From: Escherichia phage EI-SP-GF
Strand: one strand, 5' to 3'
Sequence record: OR992645.1
Length of the DNA: 64,000 nt
Below the pieces are notes generated by a model, which was given only the letters and a program-made list of their open reading frames with translations, was not told where the DNA came from and did not search any database. This document shows positions 3,386 through 62,605 of the stretch, piece by piece. Numbering within the stretch: position 1 is the stretch's first letter; each line of letters opens with the position of its first letter. Made by a program: the position numbers and the translations under genes.

Positions 3386-3448
3386 ACTGCACCTCCTAGT
3401 TTACTGTGTAACAACAATATGCCACATCCTTGTGGCTTTTGTCAAGTA

Positions 3449-4657
3449 TCAGCAACCACAGCTTCCGTAGTGCTTAACCCGTTCTATAACTTCCGCTTGC
3501 TTACCTTTGTTGTAAGGTCGGGAGTTTGGACTGGACAGATACCCAGATACACGTCTAATCACACTGATCGTTCCCTCTTCATGGTTTCCGCACTCTGGGC
3601 ATACAAAGCCTTTAGCTGTTGCACTGAACTCACCAGAGAATCCGCACTTAAGACATTTATCCACAGGTTGGTTAATACCAAAATACATAATGTGTTTATA
3701 CCCGAAATCGACAAGGGATTCCAAAGCATCCAGGTTGTTTTTCAGGTTAGGTGTTTCTATGTATCCAATGTTACCGCCAGAAGAGATCATAGCAAAACCT
3801 TCCTCATACTTCCACTTGTCAAAAGGTGAGCTATTGATCCACACGGGCTGGTGGAAACTGTTGGTAAGGTATTCGTGCTCGTGCTTCAACACTTCAGGAT
3901 ATTCACGATCTAGACATGTTGCAGCCTTATAGCACAAGCTCTCTGAAGGAGTGCCGTACAAGCTGAATGCCAGACCACTTTCTTTTTTGTACCGATCACA
4001 AGCGTCTTTCATGTGCTGAAGGATCCCAAGAGCTAAGGACTTGTCTCCCTCTCTGCCTAAAATCTGGCAGGTTTCATACACACCAATATATCCAATACTT
4101 ATGGAAGCATACCCGTCATAGAAGAGTTTATCAATACTCTCTTCAGGATCCAGGCGAGCAAGAGCTCCTTCACACCACATGATGGGGTTCTGCCCTGCCT
4201 TTGTTCCTTTTAGACGGTTAACCCTTACAAGGTGAGCCTCGTATGCCAGATCCAAGTACTCGTCAAGAACTGCAAAGAAATCAACACCTTCCGTTTTAGC
4301 TTTTGCCGCAATCATTGGTAGGTTAAGGCTAACAACACCTAAGTTAAATCTGCCAAGGTATTTCTCCTCTCCTGTTTCCAAGTCATTGTATTTGCTAAGA
4401 AAACTCCGGCAACCCATGCTTGTGACATTACCTTCTGTTGAACCTGTCACTTTTCTATTCAGTGGTACAGATACGAAGTCAGGATAAATCCGCTCTGCAG
4501 AGCATTCCAGAGCTAATCGTTTCAAATCATAGTTAGGATCCTCGGGGTTCATGTTGATACCCTCCTCCAGGAAGAACAGCACCTTAGGGAACACAGGTGT
4601 GATACGTTCTTCACCAAGACCCATTTTGTGGACTTTCAGGTAGTTTTTGGTAATCAT
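3449..4657 (-). CDS. nrdD: anaerobic ribonucleoside-triphosphate reductase, exon 2 (C-terminal part with glycyl-radical site)
   Basis: C-terminal CPECGN zinc site and RRVSGYL glycyl-radical motif; frame is open up to 4750 so true exon start may lie between 4657 and 4750. Confidence 0.85.
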   Translation of the reverse strand: MITKNYLKVHKMGLGEERITPVFPKVLFFLEEGINMNPEDPNYDLKRLALECSAERIYPDFVSVPLNRKVTGSTEGNVTSMGCRSFLSKYNDLETGEEKYLGRFNLGVVSLNLPMIAAKAKTEGVDFFAVLDEYLDLAYEAHLVRVNRLKGTKAGQNPIMWCEGALARLDPEESIDKLFYDGYASISIGYIGVYETCQILGREGDKSLALGILQHMKDACDRYKKESGLAFSLYGTPSESLCYKAATCLDREYPEVLKHEHEYLTNSFHQPVWINSSPFDKWKYEEGFAMISSGGNIGYIETPNLKNNLDALESLVDFGYKHIMYFGINQPVDKCLKCGFSGEFSATAKGFVCPECGNHEEGTISVIRRVSGYLSSPNSRPYNKGKQAEVIERVKHYGSCGC

Positions 4658-5508
4658 TCTACCAAAGATTGAGGTATCCAGTCCTAAACTTAATGTGATG
4701 AATGGAGTCTGCTGTCTCCTCCCCGTGTTTCCACAGGGCCAGACTATCTCTTACTCTACTTCAATAAGATAATAACCCTTTATTGTGAGATGCTTACCTT
4801 CGGCATTTCCTTCGATAGCCCTATGAACGTTACCTACGTTCAAATTTAAGGCTTTTGCACAGGCATAGAGTGAAGGATATTCACCCACCAAGGTTTTCCC
4901 TTTGTATGCCTGCACTTTCCTATAGCACTTGCCTGGACAAAGTCCTGTTCGGAAAGCATGTCTCTTATTATCTTCCGGCAAAACCCACTCTAGGTTAGAC
5001 GGATGATCATTCAATGTATTGCCATCTTTATGATTCACTTCCCAGTTTTCAGGGTCTTCTGGGACATCTGGCAAACAATACAAGGCAACAATCCTTGAGG
5101 TTTGGATTCGAATCTTTTTACCTTTGTGGTTGAAAGAGTACATATAACGGCGTTTAACATGCTTGTTACCTTTTCCATAACCTCCCCACAATATTGGGTG
5201 TAGCATTCCACGTTTTCCGTATACGTTTCCAACCTCATCAATCACATAGTTTGATTCTTCACCATTAAGAATGATCTTTTTCATAGAGCCTCTCCATTTC
5301 GAAGTTAGTATTTCAACTAACCCCTACACTACTTGGTTCAGAAATGTTTGTCAAGCATCTCTGCCTTTCGTTAGTCGTTACAACCGTTCCAACTCCTGTA
5401 AGAACTAGTCACGGGATTGGCATAGCTTTCGCCTTAGCGTTCCCCGTTAGCCGGATTTACCGACCCCTCTTATGAGGTTAGGAGAGTTTTACAACGGCCA
5501 GTTTGTTA
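4658..5508 (-). mobile_element. group I self-splicing intron interrupting nrdD, carrying an HNH homing endonuclease ORF (boundaries approximate)
   Basis: Sequence between the two nrdD ORFs; minus strand has P7-type elements AACGACTAAC (5' part) and AAGAGATAGTCTGG (3' part) matching group I R/S consensus; free-standing endonuclease ORF between them. Confidence 0.7.
4751..5284 (-). CDS. HNH homing endonuclease (intron-encoded)
   Basis: HNH motif NHKDGNTLNDHPSNLEWV in a 177-aa protein located inside the nrdD intron. Confidence 0.75.
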   Translation of the reverse strand: MKKIILNGEESNYVIDEVGNVYGKRGMLHPILWGGYGKGNKHVKRRYMYSFNHKGKKIRIQTSRIVALYCLPDVPEDPENWEVNHKDGNTLNDHPSNLEWVLPEDNKRHAFRTGLCPGKCYRKVQAYKGKTLVGEYPSLYACAKALNLNVGNVHRAIEGNAEGKHLTIKGYYLIEVE

Positions 5509-6369
5509 ACCGTTGACAGAAGTTAACGTATTGATTTGGTATAGCAAAGTTTGCATACTATCAAACACGTCTTTATCCGTCATTTGCATTGCAACAGTCT
5601 CAGCATCCGGCAACCAATGTTCCTGACAAAATTTAAGATTCTTCTCATAGGTTGCTTCAGCATACTGCGCCAGATAATGATCAATATGGCTCATGGTCTG
5701 ACCACCATACTGAGCACTAGCTACTGCACTAGAGATTTGGCTGAGGATTGTTGTTGCAACCCCTATTGACTTCGGCTTACTGACATGGGCGTTGCCAATG
5801 TTGAATCCGTTTTCCAGCATATCCGGATAATTCACCAAACAGCAGTTTGTTAACGGACTGATCAGATAGTCAAGATCATGCACATGGATGAATCCCTTGT
5901 TGTGCTCTTCGGAGACACGATCTGGCAGTATCTGTGTTGATGCAAGGTGTTTGCTAAGGATACCTGCAAGCAGGTCACGATGAGTATGTACATGATTAGT
6001 GGGCTTATTTGCGTTTTCTTTTGTAAATTCATCACAAGTTCGATCCAAGAAGCCACTAATATCTGCAAGCAGTTTTCCACCTGCCTCTCTGTTATTATCT
6101 CTTGTCTGTCTATACTGGATATATTCTCTGGCTGCACATTTTAAACCCATATCCATAAGAGCATCTTCAACAAGGATATGGATATTTTTTACAGAGATCG
6201 TGCACTGGTCGGTTGGTAGATTGTTGGCAACAACTTCATTAACCGCACAAGCGATCCGGTAAGCTTCTTCTTCAGTATGCCCAGACTCAAGTAAGGCGGA
6301 CTCTGCCGCCTTGATTACCTTAACTCCGTTATAGACCTCTTCTCTACCGTCCCGTTTTACAACTTTCAC
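5506..6369 (-). CDS. nrdD: anaerobic ribonucleoside-triphosphate reductase, exon 1 (N-terminal ATP-cone part)
   Basis: Starts MKVVKRDGREEVY (ATP-cone-like); ORF ends at a stop that lies at the 5' edge of the intron, exon probably ends near 5509. Confidence 0.85.
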   Translation of the reverse strand: MKVVKRDGREEVYNGVKVIKAAESALLESGHTEEEAYRIACAVNEVVANNLPTDQCTISVKNIHILVEDALMDMGLKCAAREYIQYRQTRDNNREAGGKLLADISGFLDRTCDEFTKENANKPTNHVHTHRDLLAGILSKHLASTQILPDRVSEEHNKGFIHVHDLDYLISPLTNCCLVNYPDMLENGFNIGNAHVSKPKSIGVATTILSQISSAVASAQYGGQTMSHIDHYLAQYAEATYEKNLKFCQEHWLPDAETVAMQMTDKDVFDSMQTLLYQINTLTSVNG

Positions 6370-19915: not shown

Positions 19916-19978
19916 GGTTAAACCCTCCTAAACATTTTATGAGGCAACAATACCACGTCCGTGTGGTTATGTCAATGA

Positions 19979-20449
19979 TCAATCAAGGACAACACCGCCT
20001 GCCTTTTTAAACACCTCGATCAACTTCTCAATCTTCTGTTCATGCTGACCATATCCAGCACCAGGTAACGAAGCCCAGCGGGAACGGCATTTATGGATAG
20101 CCTCGTGGATACGCCCTTCGTCAATGTCGGCGAGAGCCTTGCACTCACGGATCAGTTGCAACGCAATCTTGTCCTGACTGGCAGGGCCAAAATCTGGCAA
20201 TCCTAACTGTTCCATGTAGTGTTTAGCAAACTTCTCCAAAACCTGGTAACGCCCAGCAGCGGAGGAGGTAAGTTTAGCATTTAGCTTAACGTACACACCT
20301 GGATGCTTGCTGTAATCGCTAAACAGCTTGCCACCAACTATGACATCATAGCCCCGATCCTTGGTGGGTTGTCTACCATTATCTGTGCCTTCTGAATATG
20401 CGATCATATCCAAGAAAGCTTTTCGTTGAACATTTTTATCAAGTTTCAT
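19979..20449 (-). CDS. endolysin, lambda R-type lytic transglycosylase
   Basis: Near-collinear similarity to lambda R: QRKAFLDMIAYSEGTDNGRQ...GYDVIVGG...WASLPGAGYGQ. Confidence 0.85.
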   Translation of the reverse strand: MKLDKNVQRKAFLDMIAYSEGTDNGRQPTKDRGYDVIVGGKLFSDYSKHPGVYVKLNAKLTSSAAGRYQVLEKFAKHYMEQLGLPDFGPASQDKIALQLIRECKALADIDEGRIHEAIHKCRSRWASLPGAGYGQHEQKIEKLIEVFKKAGGVVLD

Positions 20450-20573
20450 TTTTCATACTCTCCAGTTTACTCATAACTAACCAGATCAACAACACTACAC
20501 AGTGTGGTTATGTAGGTGCCAATTGAAAAACCATCATTCGATTGGCTACCGTTACCTACTAAACCTTCCTACA

Positions 20574-21857
20574 TCATTCCAGAACCTCCCAAGTGTCTGG
20601 GTCAACATTTCGGACGCAGATACCGACAGGGAATTGGTAGTTGTTGTCTTCTGTCCTTGATTGATATTTGAAGGTGACAAACTTGCCGATCATTTCCTGC
20701 ATCCTGTCATAGCTACGCTCCTCGTGCGTGCCTTTCATCTTCATTTTAACAATAACACCTTCCTTGTCAACACAGATAAGAACACCTTCATCATTCTTAT
20801 CTTTCTCAACGTCAATAACTTTCACCTCTGCGTCGTTGAACTTTTTCCATTTCAATGCTTCAGATGTTCGCTGACCGTACTCGTATTTACCGCAGAAATT
20901 ACGCATGATAGTACCTTCATATCCTTCGGACATGAATATACCAACAGATTCTTCGCAATGATCAACTGTGTACGCAAGCTCTGCGTCAACAACCTTGATA
21001 TGGTCAAGCATCAGAGTGGTAACAGTATCCTCTGCATCCATAAGATCCTTGCAGCGTCCAGACTCTGTTTCTGGATCCCACCACACCTTGTCGCTAGGAA
21101 TATCAAAAATGTGATACTCCAGATCGTAGCTACAGTACCCACCGTAACGCAAATCATCACGAACAGGCTCAACATCGACAGGAATATCTACCTTGTTGAA
21201 GTTTTTGTATGTTGATAAGCCTGCCTTAATTGCTGCATGACGGCGTTTTTTATCTGCCTCATAGTCTTTATCGATCTCGGCCTGAATCTCTTCCTGTGTG
21301 CGCCACCGTTTAGCAAGAGACACTATTTTCTGCAAAGGAAGACCATGAATGTATAGTTCCCCATCAAGTTGTTTAATCCCAGTGGTAGAATGGAAAGAAC
21401 GAAGTTGCTCTAAAAGCTTTCCTTGAATAGGGTAGGACTTATTACCACGGGAAATAAATTTAGGCTCACCATTTTGGAAAACAACAAGCAGACGAAGGCC
21501 ATCTAACTTACGCAAGATCCAGCAAGGTAATTTAAGTGCCTTGCCACGCTTCAGGTAGTCATGCACCAGCATGGGTAAAAGATCAACACCCTGCTCGCAA
21601 TCTTCCATGTTTTCAACATACCCCAGACGGACTTGTTTTTCCCACTTGCTGATAGCCTCAAGCTCGGCCTGTTGCTCAGCTGTAGTCTCGTTGGCACGAC
21701 CTACGTTCTTAGGTGTGCATACCGTCTCTTTGTACTGCAGTTTACCATCAAGCTTGCCAAACTCTACGATAACCTTATCACCATCCGTGAATACTTTCCA
21801 CTGTTGGTAGCTGCCATCTTTATTCAGTGCGTACAGTGTTGTTTTGATCTGATGCAT
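20574..21857 (-). CDS. ATP-dependent DNA ligase
   Basis: Nucleotidyltransferase motif I KLDGLR and motif IV EGYEGTIMR. Confidence 0.6.
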   Translation of the reverse strand: MHQIKTTLYALNKDGSYQQWKVFTDGDKVIVEFGKLDGKLQYKETVCTPKNVGRANETTAEQQAELEAISKWEKQVRLGYVENMEDCEQGVDLLPMLVHDYLKRGKALKLPCWILRKLDGLRLLVVFQNGEPKFISRGNKSYPIQGKLLEQLRSFHSTTGIKQLDGELYIHGLPLQKIVSLAKRWRTQEEIQAEIDKDYEADKKRRHAAIKAGLSTYKNFNKVDIPVDVEPVRDDLRYGGYCSYDLEYHIFDIPSDKVWWDPETESGRCKDLMDAEDTVTTLMLDHIKVVDAELAYTVDHCEESVGIFMSEGYEGTIMRNFCGKYEYGQRTSEALKWKKFNDAEVKVIDVEKDKNDEGVLICVDKEGVIVKMKMKGTHEERSYDRMQEMIGKFVTFKYQSRTEDNNYQFPVGICVRNVDPDTWEVLE

Positions 21858-26383: not shown

Positions 26384-26734
26384 ATGAAAGATGGGGATAA
26401 GCTGCTATATCTTAAAGTCCCCCTTGAAATACTGTCTATGTCAAAAGTTTTGAATGACACAACTGGAGAGGTTGTTGTTCTTGACTTGTATGACAAGATC
26501 GTATACTGCTACCTGCACAACTGGTATAAGCTTGGAGGAAATTCACGCTTCACACCCAGCACAAGGAAAATTGCAGCAGATGTTGGGATAAAGAAAACAA
26601 AAGCAGCAGCGTGCGTTAAAACTTTAGAGTGTGCAGGGGTGGTTGAAACATCCACACAAGGGAGAGGTAAAAGATGCACATTTTCCAAAGTTTTGCCACC
26701 AGAAGAAGTTATTCGGATGTCAACAACTGGTTAG
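26384..26734 (+). CDS. putative HTH DNA-binding protein (116 aa)
   Basis: STRKIAADVGIKKTKAAACVKTLECAGVVE resembles a winged-helix/HTH recognition segment. Confidence 0.4.
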   Translation: MKDGDKLLYLKVPLEILSMSKVLNDTTGEVVVLDLYDKIVYCYLHNWYKLGGNSRFTPSTRKIAADVGIKKTKAAACVKTLECAGVVETSTQGRGKRCTFSKVLPPEEVIRMSTTG

Positions 26735-26809
26735 ACCAGTAAAAACTTAAATATCTGTACTATAAGGATTCGTATGTTTTATGTTCGCTCTAGAATAGAG
26801 GTCAGTAAC

Positions 26810-26890
26810 TGTCCGTGATACGGACACTACTGTCCGTCACGCGGACACATCTGCCCGTAATACGGACACTAACTGTCCGTGATACGGACA
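26810..26890. repeat. four tandem 17-bp palindromic operator-like sites (TGTCCG-N5-CGGACA)
   Basis: Copies at 26810-26826, 26831-26847, 26853-26869, 26874-26890; copies 1 and 4 identical, 2 and 3 slightly degenerate; centre-to-centre spacing 21-22 bp. Confidence 0.65.
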
Positions 26891-27395
26891 CATAAAGAAT
26901 ATAACTAAAATAACTAAATAATAAAAAATAAAAGATCTAGTACTTATGGTACTAAAGTACATATACTTAACTTATGTAGAATATACTAGATCCTAAGTAC
27001 CATGTTTTAAATTTATTACTTACTATAGGTAGTGTCGGCCCTTCATTGGCACTCGCCTACGAGGGGCGAGATGCCGGGCCTCCATAGTGCACACAATAAC
27101 AGAAGTGCATACATGCAGGTCTGTTAACATGTGTGGGAGCGAAGCGATAGCGCAGGCCAAAGGCCGAGCACTAATGTGGACCACCGACGAAAGCTTGCCA
27201 GCGCCGTAAGGGGTCGGTTGAGAGCCTCCCGCGCGAGTTTGGATAAAGTTTATGTGTGGAAACTGACAAGAAGGCCCCTAAATCGCTCCACAGCTATATA
27301 AACTATACCAAGTAAGGCAATCGCACCAGTTTGATAGAAAAGCTCGTTACAAAGCGATACAGTTAGTTTTTCTATAACTTGAAGAGGAGTCTGCT

Positions 27396-31315: not shown

Positions 31316-31740
31316 TGTCTAAGATTTACGGACCGTGTTCTGAAAAGCAGAAGATGATCCTGGAAAATGATGCAGATATTTTGGTAATTGGCGGGGCTGC
31401 AGGATCTGGCAAGTCATTCCTCTTGCAGCTAATGCCGCTTAAAATTATTGATGACCCGCACAGCTCTGTGGTTATGTTCCGAAGAACAACCCCACAGTTG
31501 GAAGGTGAGGGGGGACTATGGCCTAAAGCAGTAGCTATTTATAGTGATCTGCCAGAAAACATTAAGCCAAAGTTTAGAGAGAAGGATCATAAGTTCATTT
31601 TTCCACGGTTTGATCCGAGCACTGGCAAGTGGGACAGGAGCAAAAAGGGAGCTGTTGTAAAATACTGCCACATGGAATATGTCCAAGATAAGCTTAACCA
31701 TCAGGGTTTGGAATACACCATGGTTTGCTTCGATGAGGGT
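31315..31740 (+). CDS. terminase large subunit, exon 1 (ATPase Walker A and B)
   Basis: Walker A GGAAGSGKS and Walker B MVCFDEG; ORF stops immediately after Walker B at the intron edge. Confidence 0.8.
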
Positions 31741-42810: not shown

Positions 42811-42841
42811 GCCTCACCTTCTGGTGGGGCTTTTTGCTTTT
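42811..42841 (+). terminator. intrinsic terminator
   Basis: 8-bp stem GCCTCACC/GGTGGGGC, loop TTCT, then TTTTTGCTTTT. Confidence 0.7.
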
Positions 42842-57002: not shown

Positions 57003-57030
57003 CCCTCGCTTCGGCGGGGGCTTTTTGTTT
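57003..57030 (+). terminator. intrinsic terminator
   Basis: Stem CCCTCGC/GCGGGGG with UUCG tetraloop, then CTTTTTGTTT. Confidence 0.7.
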
Positions 57031-57033
57031 GTA

Positions 57034-57062
57034 TTGCGTATTAACTCAAAATCTGGTAAAAT
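57034..57062 (+). promoter_or_regulatory. sigma70-like promoter (TTGCGT-N17-TAAAAT)
   Basis: Hexamers at 57034-57039 and 57057-57062; TGGTAAAAT extended -10. Confidence 0.5.
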
Positions 57063-57093
57063 AACTATCATGATTGTTTAACCTGGAGGCACA

Positions 57094-58662: not shown

Positions 58663-61600
58663 TGCCAATTGCAATGATTGATAACATCGTTGCTTCTGCA
58701 AGATCTTCGAGCTATGACTGGAACGCATCCAAGGCAGCTCTGGCTGACAGCCTGAACACTGTTACCACCAGAACCCTGGATAAGATTTTCGAAGGTAACA
58801 AATCTTACAGAAGTCAGCAAGATAGACAAAAGCTTCTCAGATCTTCTGCTGCACCTTGCTCTGTAGTGTATGGGAAGACACGCACATCTGGATTGCTTGC
58901 GTTTTTGGAGCAGGACAGGGACAGAACCCTTCATTGTGCTATTGTTCTTGCCAATCATCCCTTGGAAGGTATAGAAGATATACTTATCGACGGTAATCCT
59001 ATTTCCTCGTATGGGGATTTGGTATCGTGGGAGTTACATAACGACAGGAAAACCTCTGATCCTTTCATGGGTACACACTGCCCTTCGTGGTCACCAGACA
59101 TGATAGGTAGAGGGATCAGTTGGCTACGTGCCAGCTTTAAGTTTGACCCTAACAAGTTTCCTTTTGGGTTGCCAAACGTTACACTCGTCAAGGTTGGTAA
59201 AAAATGTTATGATCCTCGTATCAGTAAAGAGGTGTATACCAATAACGCTGCCTTGGTGATTCTGGACTACCTAAGAACGTACCTTAAATGTCCTGACGAA
59301 ACCATCAACTGGGAGTCCTTCAAGGAAGCTGCCAACATATGCGATGAGGCTGTAAAAAACGCGGACGGAACCAGTGAGCGCCGTTACACCATTAATGGCG
59401 AGTTCGACATGGATGAAGCACCAGCAAGCATTATGGCAGAGATGCTGAAAGCTTGTGGTGCAGACCTTAGCTATGTAGCTGGCAAATATGGTCTGCTGGT
59501 AGGTGCATACTATGGCCCGGCAACAATGACACTTAGCGAGAACTGTGTTTGCGGTGAGGTTAAGATCTATCCTGAAGCCTCCTTCGACAAAAGATCCAAC
59601 ACAATAACTGGCAGATTCACTAGTCCGGCCAAAGGGTATTCTGAAACAGATTTTCCATCAGTGTTTGTCCCAGAGTGGGTAGAGAAGGATGGAGAAAGAA
59701 AGATAATCGATATAGATTATCGCTTTGTTACCAGTCCTTATCAAGCTCAGCGTGTTTCTGCAATCTTCTTAAGACGTGCCAGAGCTGGTAGGATTATTGA
59801 AGTAACCTGCAATATGCGGGGTTTTAAATTTAAGCCTGGGCGTTACGTTACGATGGACCTCCCAAGTATTGGTATAGTGGGCCAAGAAATGAGGGTTCTT
59901 GAATGGGAGTTCACCAAAAAGGGCGGTGTCAAGGTAAAACTCCGTCAAGATGCTAAAGAGTGGAATGATGCCACAGGGCAACTTCCGGATTCTGGAGATG
60001 TGGATATTCCGATATCCCCGTCCGGCGTAGCTCAACCGCAAAACTTCAGATACTCTGTTCTTCAAGCTGGGGAAGTAACTCATGGTGTTTTGGCTTGGGA
60101 CAACGTTGGAACTTATGCTCAAAATATTGTGCAGGTAAGAAAGAACGGAGAGATTATTTGGACAGCACAGACAGTTGAGCAGTTTGTCCGCGTAGAAGGA
60201 TTGACCAAAGGGTCATACACAGCAACCGTGGTTGCAACATCTTATAAAGGTGGTGTATCTCCAGAAGCTTACTGCGAGTTTAACATTCAAGCACCTGAAG
60301 CTCCTGTTTCTGTAGAAGTTAAGCAGGGATACTTTGCTATCACCTTGATTCCGCACAGCAGGGACTTAGCAAGTGTAAGCACCCAGTATGATTTTTGGAC
60401 ATCTGGTATGACAAGGTTGCCGGACACAAGTGATGCAACCGTTACTTCAAAAGCCACCCGTATGGGTGTTGGTTCAACTTGGACATCTGAAGGTCTGCAG
60501 AACGATAAGATTTATTATTGGTATATTCGAACCACAAACGCTTTTGGTAGTTCTCAGTTTGTAGAATGCGCTGCACGCTGCTACACCTCTATTGAAGATT
60601 TGATGCCTCAGATAGATGCTGAATTTAAAAAGACAGAAACTTATAAAGAGTTGATGAGCACTTTAGATTCCTCTATCGAGGAGGTTGAAAATCGTGTCAC
60701 AGAGCTTAACAAGTACATGGACGGAAGGGTAGATGAGGCATTCCAACAACTTGGAGATAGGATAGGTGCGGTAGTTGCAGAGACAACTCAGAAGTTTGAG
60801 GATGTCAATGGTAATATCACAGCTCTGGATAGGAAACTTGTTGCTGCACAGAACAAGTTCACCAACGATCTGAACACTGAAAGTGGAAGACTGGCATCCC
60901 TGATCGAGACAACCAATAAAGCAACCACTGATCTTCTGAACAAAAAGACAGAGGCTTTAGACGAGAAATTGGTTGCAGCCAAAGGGGAGTTGGTAGAACA
61001 AATAAGTGGTGTGGAGAGCGGATACCTTGCCGGAGATAAAACTCTAGATGGCAAGATCAATACCCAGAGAACGGAACTTGATGCAAGCATCTTAAGCACC
61101 AACCAGGCGACAGTGGATCTTCTCAACAGGACATCTGAAACTTTGGATCAAAAGATCAGTCAGACAAACGCGACGGTATCTAAGAACTATACCACCCTTG
61201 ATGGTAAGATAACTACCGCAAAAACTGATCTCAATACCTTGATTGCCAATACCAACAAGGCCACCACAGATTTGTTGAATCAGAAAACCTCTGCACTGTC
61301 GGAGCAGATAACTTCTGCACGTGGAGAAATTTCTACCAACAAACAGGCGATTAAGGATTTGGATGGTAAGCTGACCTCCACAAAAACAGCACTGGACGCT
61401 ACAATCTCCGATACCAACAAAGCAACCGTGGATCTTATTAACGGCACAGCGTCAGCTATTCGTCAAGAACTTGCTGTTGCTAAGCAGGAGATCATTGATG
61501 ATGTCGGTGATGTGTCAGAGCTTAGAGCTGCAGTAGCTACAACATCTAAGGCTGTGACAGACTTAGAGGGCAAAGTAACTGCTCAATGGGGCACAAAAAT

Positions 61601-62509: not shown

Positions 62510-62534
62510 CCCCGCTTCGGCGGGGTTTATTTTT
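62510..62534 (+). terminator. intrinsic terminator
   Basis: Stem CCCCGC/GCGGGG with UUCG tetraloop, then TTTATTTTT. Confidence 0.7.
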
Positions 62535-62543
62535 ATGCTCAGA

Positions 62544-62572
62544 TTGACTATTGTTACAAAATTTGGTAAAAT
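62544..62572 (+). promoter_or_regulatory. sigma70-like promoter (TTGACT-N17-TAAAAT)
   Basis: Hexamers at 62544-62549 and 62567-62572; TGGTAAAAT extended -10. Confidence 0.5.
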
Positions 62573-62605
62573 ACCTTGTAGAGATTTTCATACCGGAGGA
62601 GTGAC

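Follow-up and report, generated by a model that had tools for sequence, protein, structure and literature searches.

The 12-nucleotide sequence repeated on either side of the endolysin gene of Escherichia phage EI-SP-GF is, in the reading we prefer (probability about 0.6), no regulatory word in itself: its first copy would be a part of the sigma70-type promoter P90 and its second copy a degenerate partial copy of the same block, the two being connected by shared descent. A true shared lysis switch would have given a handle on lysis timing in rV5-like phages for therapeutic use or biocontrol. The evidence favours an already annotated host-type promoter together with a non-conserved look-alike, and hence little new regulatory biology.

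Gene order around the repeat

The window, i.e. the whole 64-kb stretch of DNA analysed (accession number OR992645.1), is assigned by its sequence to an rV5-like coliphage of the genus Vequintavirus (rV5-like myoviruses). About 110 Vequintavirus phages of Escherichia match the 4-kb region around the repeat at 97–99.5% identity, and A6-1 is the closest of them. The minus strand carries the genes up to about 26.3 kb, and the structural genes are located on the plus strand. The order on the minus strand is DNA ligase, endolysin, a small gene of 68 codons and an HNH endonuclease, and the two copies of the 12-mer lie among them as follows.

20574–21857, minus strand: gene for ATP-dependent DNA ligase, upstream of copy 2 (Pfam DNA_ligase_A_M and OB_2)
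20502–20513, minus strand: copy 2 of the 12-mer, exact match, in the gap between ligase and lysin
19979–20449, minus strand: endolysin gene, between the two copies (phrog_90 endolysin, E = 3e-56)
19961–19972, minus strand: copy 1 of the 12-mer, exact match, lying in P90 across the 3' end of the −35 (3 nt) and part of the spacer (9 nt)
19709–19915, minus strand: small gene, an ORF for 68 aa with a hydrophobic, signal-like N-terminal segment (phrog_4641, a function-unknown family)
19235–19699, minus strand: HNH endonuclease gene, adjoining the small gene

The small protein keeps at least 95% identity across the genus, and its homologues in Serratia phage Kashira and Salmonella phage SSBI34 are about 35% identical. 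The original prediction that the repeat may be an element coordinating the expression of lysis genes is unsupported: the small protein belongs to phrog_4641, its homologues in other genera have no lysin as neighbour, and the lysin is missing from the small-gene locus in those genera. In phage Kashira the homologue comes after a terminator. Given this family and these neighbourhoods, the small downstream gene is not demonstrably one of the lysis genes.

A local repeat with two members

The 12-mer reads GTGTGGTTATGT on the plus strand and ACATAACCACAC on the gene strand. Exact matching confirmed that it is present twice in the window, and both copies are intergenic and lie on the sense strand of the minus-strand genes. 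The second copy had been placed at 20503–20514, which is off by one base, the correct interval being 20502–20513. The distance of 45–65 nt to the start codons holds, since copy 1 lies 46 nt before the ATG at 19915 and copy 2 lies 53 nt before that at 20449. As for the CAC that was said to precede the motif, it is found nearby but not adjacent to it, the plus-strand flanks being CCACGTCC/GTGTGG and CACTACACA/GTGTGG.

A repeated exact 12-mer is unremarkable alone. There are 179 direct repeats of at least 12 nt in the window versus 128 expected, 14 of such pairs lie within 1 kb versus 3.8 expected, and 6 pairs of (crudely defined) intergenic segments share a 12-mer versus 2.3 expected. The unusual part is that both copies occur in adjacent intergenic segments, for which only 0.03–0.06 pairs sharing a 12-mer are expected. 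Moreover, the similarity runs past the 12-mer. In a local alignment the blocks of copy 1 and copy 2 have 23/28 identities with one gap, the aligned block being ACATAACCACAC[G/T]G(A)[C/T]GT[G/A]GT[A/G]TTGTTG. The shuffle P for this pair is 6e-4, and it ranks only 3–4 among the 496 intergenic pairs.

In the complete genome of rV5 (138 kb) the exact 12-mer is also found twice, at the homologous sites, versus 0.02 occurrences expected, and the form CCACAC-N3-7-GTGKT is restricted to the same two sites. The copies with mismatches are near the chance level in rV5 (3 with one mismatch versus 0.75 expected, 18 with two mismatches versus 12) and are located in coding or unrelated DNA. None of the 8-mers of the motif occurs in the other intergenic segments of the window. 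A regulon of the 12-mer was rejected, because scans for exact, one-mismatch, two-mismatch and sub-k-mer matches in the window and in complete rV5 gave only the two sites plus chance matches. Thus the repeat is real, local and two-membered, and is not a dispersed motif. Apart from this, a one-mismatch copy, ACATAACCACAGagctGTGG, lies antisense within the large terminase gene (window 31466–31477, minus strand; rV5 60710–60729, plus strand) and matches the core of P90 at 16/20 positions, where about 0.1 such matches would be expected by chance according to a rough estimate.

Could the 12-mer be shared by pure coincidence, without any common origin or function, copy 1 still being a part of P90? 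We consider this rather unlikely. The background of chance repeats given above (about 128 repeated 12-mers, about 3.8 pairs within 1 kb and about 2.3 intergenic pairs) leaves room for it, the pair was picked after the fact, and its alignment score is tied or beaten by other intergenic pairs. However, the rarity of a shared 12-mer in adjacent intergenic segments, the continuation of the similarity past the 12-mer, the confinement of the CCACAC-N3-7-GTGKT form to both sites, and the fact that the copy 2 variants of SophiaRose and UADI01 bear GTGGT as in P90 all speak against it. The repeat of copy 1 and copy 2 is probably beyond pure chance; because of the rank of only 3–4 of 496, common descent is not proven against chance.

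Copy 1 is a part of the predicted promoter P90

Copy 1 lies wholly within a sigma70-type promoter, the spacer of which contains an inverted repeat.

19947–19975, minus strand: sigma70-type promoter P90, consisting of TTGACA (19975–19970), a 17-nt spacer, TG and TATTGT (19952–19947)
19952–19967, no strand: perfect inverted repeat ACCAC-N6-GTGGT in the spacer of P90, the sole exact occurrence in the window

Read along its genes' strand, copy 1 is embedded in TGATTGATCA-TTGACA-TAACCACACGGACGTGG-TATTGT, which reached 10/12 plus TG in the promoter scan. The −35 agrees with the consensus at 6/6 positions, the spacer is 17 nt long, TG stands at −15/−14, and the −10 agrees at 4/6 positions including −11A and −7T. 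Three bases of the 12-mer form the end of the −35 hexamer, and the other nine belong to the spacer. The same promoter has been published for rV5, in whose GenBank record (DQ832317) it is annotated as 'Sigma70-type promoter; P90' and whose promoter table gives the sequence of P090 as TTGACATAACCACACGGACGTGGTATTTT (Kropinski et al. 2013, PMC3606486, Table S4). The two are alike in position, between the lysin and the small-protein gene, and in the sequence TTGACATAACCACACGGACGTGGTATT[T/G]T; the difference is that rV5 has TATTTT at −10 and the window TATTGT. In PMC3606486 P90 was predicted by consensus only, without experiment, and neither a repeat upstream of the lysin nor the likeness to a promoter after nrdD is mentioned. 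In phage Gotham a promoter at the position of P90 was independently predicted by PhagePromoter. Compared with ordinary extended −10 promoters of sigma70 in E. coli, the context of copy 1 shows no difference: it has the −35, the −10 with its spacing and the conservation in diverged relatives, whereas copy 2 fails at the −35 and at −11A. We therefore regard copy 1 as part of an ordinary, already published, predicted sigma70 promoter, and we infer from these signals that P90 is active. That the 12-mer may be a promoter element accordingly holds for copy 1 only, and there loosely: copy 1 does lie inside P90, though the 12-mer itself mostly spares the recognition elements, and copy 2 has no acceptable −35 or −10.

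The P90 block is kept in all of the 118 matching genomes (118/118), and it stands directly 3' of whatever gene precedes it, be it an inserted HNH gene or one of the lysin alleles (rV5-type or other). In a comparison of ten distinct relatives, 3 singleton changes were counted in the 29-nt block and about 14 variable columns in the 34-nt leader behind it. One of the changes falls in the 12-mer (ev147), and SKEL01 has a 1-nt insertion. Within the genus the inverted repeat ACCAC-N6-GTGGT is invariant. The spacer of P90 is conserved there as strongly as the hexamers, which could hint at an extra constraint on the spacer. More distant relatives give a different picture. The comparison that decides is the one with L014, a relative from metagenomic data with 66% identity in the small protein. 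L014 keeps the arrangement of lysin, promoter and small gene, and its promoter, TTGACA-GCCTGCTTTGTTTCTGG-TATACT, keeps the −35, the 17-nt spacing, TGG and the −10, but the part of the spacer corresponding to the 12-mer is lost and the inverted repeat is absent. In Salmonella phage SSBI34 the homologue of the small gene is not beside a lysin and has a promoter of its own, TTGACT-17-TATAAT, without the motif. Since L014 and SSBI34 keep the promoter elements without the 12-mer, the constraint is on the canonical promoter elements. P90 would thus be a strong, host-type internal promoter that drives the small signal-peptide-like gene and the genes downstream, and what matters for its function would be the two hexamers (TTGACA and TATTGT), their 17-nt spacing and TG, and not the 12-mer.

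Copy 2 and the gap between ligase and lysin

The following features surround copy 2, the last of them in a relative.

20743–20770, minus strand: sigma70-like site close to the consensus within the ligase gene, 11/12 plus TG (TTGACA-16-TAAAAT)
20518–20546, minus strand: hairpin GCCAATcGAA-N9-TTCaATTGGC, just 3' of the ligase stop, without a following U-tract
20487–20513, minus strand: extended P90-like block at copy 2, ACATAACCACACTG-TGTAGTGTTGTTG, aligned to 19945–19972
L005 4299–4793 (= L009; contig Ga0129313_1000039): VUT-family (YhhQ-like) gene, 164 aa, in the gap between ligase and lysin

In the alignment to P90, copy 2 has CCTACA (3/6) in place of the −35 and TGTTGT in place of the −10, without −11A and without TG. 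The best alternative sigma70-like site around copy 2 is TTGGCA-17-TGTAGT in the window, with TGCAGT in rV5; it is weak, lacks −11A, and its register relative to the 12-mer differs from that of P90. No sigma70 site in 20450–20573 passed the promoter scan, and no promoter was marked at copy 2 by the authors of the rV5 genome or by PhagePromoter in the ligase–lysin gap of Gotham. Neither the −35 nor the −10 of a sigma70 promoter is found at copy 2, which we infer to be inactive as such a promoter.

The sequence of copy 2 is also variable. Among 9 close relatives 5/12 columns vary, with ATATAACCACAC in OCMD01, ACCTAGCCACAC in UADI01, and ATATAACCATGC in HMD-6 and SKEL01, and an indel of 27–28 nt abuts or splits copy 2 in UADI01, HMD-6 and SKEL01, where the alignment cannot tell which. 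L005/L009 have the gene for the 164-aa VUT-family membrane protein in place of the hairpin and copy 2, and the sequence common to all relatives begins just 3' of copy 2 (CAGTGTTGTTGATC...GGAGAGTATGAAAAATG). In GenBank, the 71-nt segment with copy 2 is full-length in only 90 of about 118 genomes, others aligning only up to a point inside the 12-mer. In total, about three quarters of the genomes have copy 2 intact and about a quarter of the genus has it mutated, beside an indel or replaced, so viable phages manage without an intact copy 2. GenBank has no relatives of intermediate distance by which copy 2 could be dated, the ligase identity being either at least 90% or below 60%; of the extra loci sought for this dating, 1 came from IMG/VR and 6 from a metagenome scan. 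The idea that copy 2 is a remnant of the VUT gene was rejected, because the sequence shared with L005 starts only 3' of copy 2. By tblastn the VUT gene has no match in the Vequintavirus genomes of GenBank, and its matches, at 24–36% identity, come from phages outside the genus, most of them siphoviruses (mEp021 and Opt-719, for example).

We therefore picture copy 2 as what is probably a degenerate partial copy of a block of about 28 nt, in which a functional −35 and the essential −11A were lost or never present. It sits in a fast-evolving gap prone to indels and gene insertions. The simplest and most likely route to lysin expression would be read-through from upstream promoters, possibly aided by the site inside the ligase gene. 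No terminator was called between ligase and lysin, and the hairpin at the ligase stop, whose stem is perfect in most relatives, was not called as a terminator either. The ligase-internal site lies 197 nt before the ligase stop and about 300 nt upstream of the lysin ATG, is identical in 8/10 relatives but absent from rV5, and is a candidate for an alternative promoter of the lysin.

A predicted P90-like promoter after nrdD

The best partner of P90 in the intergenic alignments is not copy 2 but a block after nrdD (top intergenic pair, score 19).

3412–3445, minus strand: P90-like, near-consensus sigma70 promoter just behind nrdD, TTGACAAAAGCCACAAGGATGTGGCATATTGTTG (in rV5, DQ832317 87768–87813)

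In this alignment P90 reads TTGACATAA-CCACACGGACGTGG--TATTGTTG, and the two promoters have in common the −35, the inverted repeat CCAC-N6-GTGG in the spacer, and the −10 region. An nhmmer profile built from both gave no sites but these two (E about 1e-13) when rV5 and the window were searched; the next match has E of at least 0.8, copy 2 was not recovered, and there are no further members. The promoter catalogue of rV5 misses the promoter after nrdD, which is absent from its table. The promoter borders a region of variable gene content, where rV5 has ORFs 114–116 and the window a single ORF of 38 aa before nrdG. Because the likeness of P90 to the promoter after nrdD includes the spacer, duplication of a promoter block is plausible in this genome, and we think that the resemblance linking copy 2, P90 and the block behind nrdD most probably goes back to duplication or recombination. 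All three would descend from a common promoter cassette that was duplicated locally or recombined around swappable genes, and similar promoter blocks beside variable genes do hint at shuffling of the cassette type.

The nrdD gene itself is split in the window into an N-terminal part (ATP-cone and NRDD 1–154), an ORF for an HNH endonuclease and a C-terminal part (NRDD 180–562 and glycyl radical), at 5506–6369, 4751–5284 and 3449–4657, respectively, all on the minus strand. In rV5 nrdD is one gene of 2124 nt. The split is probably an insertion of the homing-endonuclease or intron type.

Mosaicism of the locus and comparison with PeSLs

The locus of ligase, lysin and small gene, where alternative alleles of the lysin and mobile HNH and VUT genes are found, is a hot spot of recombination.

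L002 1085–1768; L003 3280–4041 and 4096–4593; L004 1556–2272: mosaicism of the lysin locus (HNH insertions, second lysin allele)

It is called mosaic because there are two lysin alleles with conserved ends, flanking HNH genes and a VUT moron, and because other genera have no lysin at this locus. The second allele found in relatives has only the first ~14 codons and the C-terminal end in common with the rV5-type lysin, and free-standing HNH genes occur on either side of the lysin, separating it from P90 or from its own leader. In addition, the 3' end of the ligase gene of rV5 (L008 1690–1843, compared with window 20574–20730) is strongly divergent from the window and eight relatives while its flanks are near-identical, which suggests a mosaic exchange within the ligase.

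With so many HNH genes at the locus, including those immediately beside the blocks in the window (19235–19699) and in relatives, the repeats could be thought of as recognition or cleavage sites of free-standing HNH homing endonucleases. Homing usually disrupts or alters its target site. The sequence of copy 1, however, is the same in genomes with and without extra HNH genes, which leaves this explanation extremely improbable.

The mosaicism also recalls the PeSLs (promoter-early stem-loops) of T4-type phages, in which a sigma70 promoter is combined with a stem-loop that often separates −35 and −10; PeSLs border genes that are shuffled, and they recombine with one another, giving mini-circles (Arbiol et al. 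2010, PMC2839356). The likeness is that similar blocks flank a gene exchanged between close relatives. If the blocks were PeSL-like patches of short homology, recombination between them would insert, excise or swap the endolysin cassette and its neighbours. The blocks directly flank the lysin, the lysin allele differs between relatives and the lysin is missing here in other genera, and the HNH and VUT insertions stop at the block edges. Furthermore, P90 with its 5-bp stem in the spacer has the commonest layout of PeSLs, a stem-loop between −35 and −10, copy 2 comes after a 10-bp hairpin, and the look-alike after nrdD borders a region of differing gene content between rV5 and the window. On the other hand, there are 2–3 related blocks per genome here versus the dozens of clustered copies of PeSLs, and the identity extends over about 12–23 nt versus the conserved span of about 100 bp described for PeSLs. 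The stems are short (5 bp) and are not G/C tracts as in PeSLs, and the phage family differs. One of the two blocks flanking the lysin, copy 2, has an upstream hairpin but no credible, let alone strong, promoter, and the 5' edge of the lysin allele exchange is inside the lysin coding sequence, not at copy 2. Because of the 2–3 copies, the short homology and the member without promoter, membership of the blocks among the PeSLs is not supported, and we judge the swapping of the lysin cassette through them improbable. A broader version is still doubtful in our opinion, though a little easier to entertain: the P90 block, a decayed copy 2 and the promoter after nrdD might form a small family of promoter-plus-hairpin units that serve as recombination linkers for cassettes such as lysin alleles, HNH genes and morons. 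If true, modular shuffling of the PeSL type would not be confined to the T4 superfamily.

An improbable shared regulator

The remaining explanation is that the 12-mer is the binding site of an activator or another factor co-regulating the lysin and the small gene. Both copies do lie on the same strand at similar distances from the start codons (46 and 53 nt), and the spacer of P90 is well kept within the genus. Nevertheless, of the recurrence, orthologous conservation and shared architecture expected from a transcription-factor regulon, none was found. No further sites occur genome-wide; copy 1 is kept within the genus but the motif is lost at the orthologous promoter of L014, and copy 2 is variable, about a quarter of the genus having it disrupted or replaced; and the motif stands in differing registers relative to any −35 and −10. 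There is also no palindrome common to both sites, and the small gene is, as stated, not demonstrably a lysis gene. A co-regulating factor is thus very improbable compared with P90 and a degenerate copy of its block.

A shared operator ACCAC-N6-GTGGT was rejected, because it is exact only at copy 1. The relaxed form CCAC-N6-GTGG occurs 7 times in rV5 versus 1.6 expected, 5/7 being in coding DNA, and copy 2 is without it. The dyad CCAC-N6-GTGG in P90 and in the promoter after nrdD may possibly be an operator for a temporal regulator. With respect to RNA structure, covariation does not support the small hairpin 3' of copy 2 (Alifold term +0.67; pairs broken in 2/6 variants), the two leaders fold no better than their shuffles (z-scores −0.46 and −0.32), and there were no Rfam matches at E ≤ 1. 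Transcriptomes or maps of transcription start sites for Vequintavirus were not found in the searchable literature.

Other repeats in the window

Four tandem units of 21 nt, each with the palindrome GTCCGTnnnACGGAC, are located at 26809–26893. They are preceded by an ORF for 116 aa on the plus strand (26384–26734), which is ORF79 of rV5, a 'putative transcriptional regulator', and are followed by about 110 nt of very AT-rich DNA (26894–27010). The array with its AT-rich DNA looks like iterons with an origin or like an array of operators where the divergent arms meet. A link between these palindromes and the spacer of P90 via CACGGAC was rejected, because it is a single half-site at chance frequency.

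Finally, at 57004–57066 and 62510–62576, and also at 42813–42840, there are terminator hairpins of the form CCTCGCTTCGGCGGGG-TTTTT, with a shared block behind them that ends in TTTGGTAAAATA. The terminator-linked block ending in TTTGGTAAAATA fits the T4-late-like motif TggTAaAAtA described in the rV5 paper (PMC3606486).
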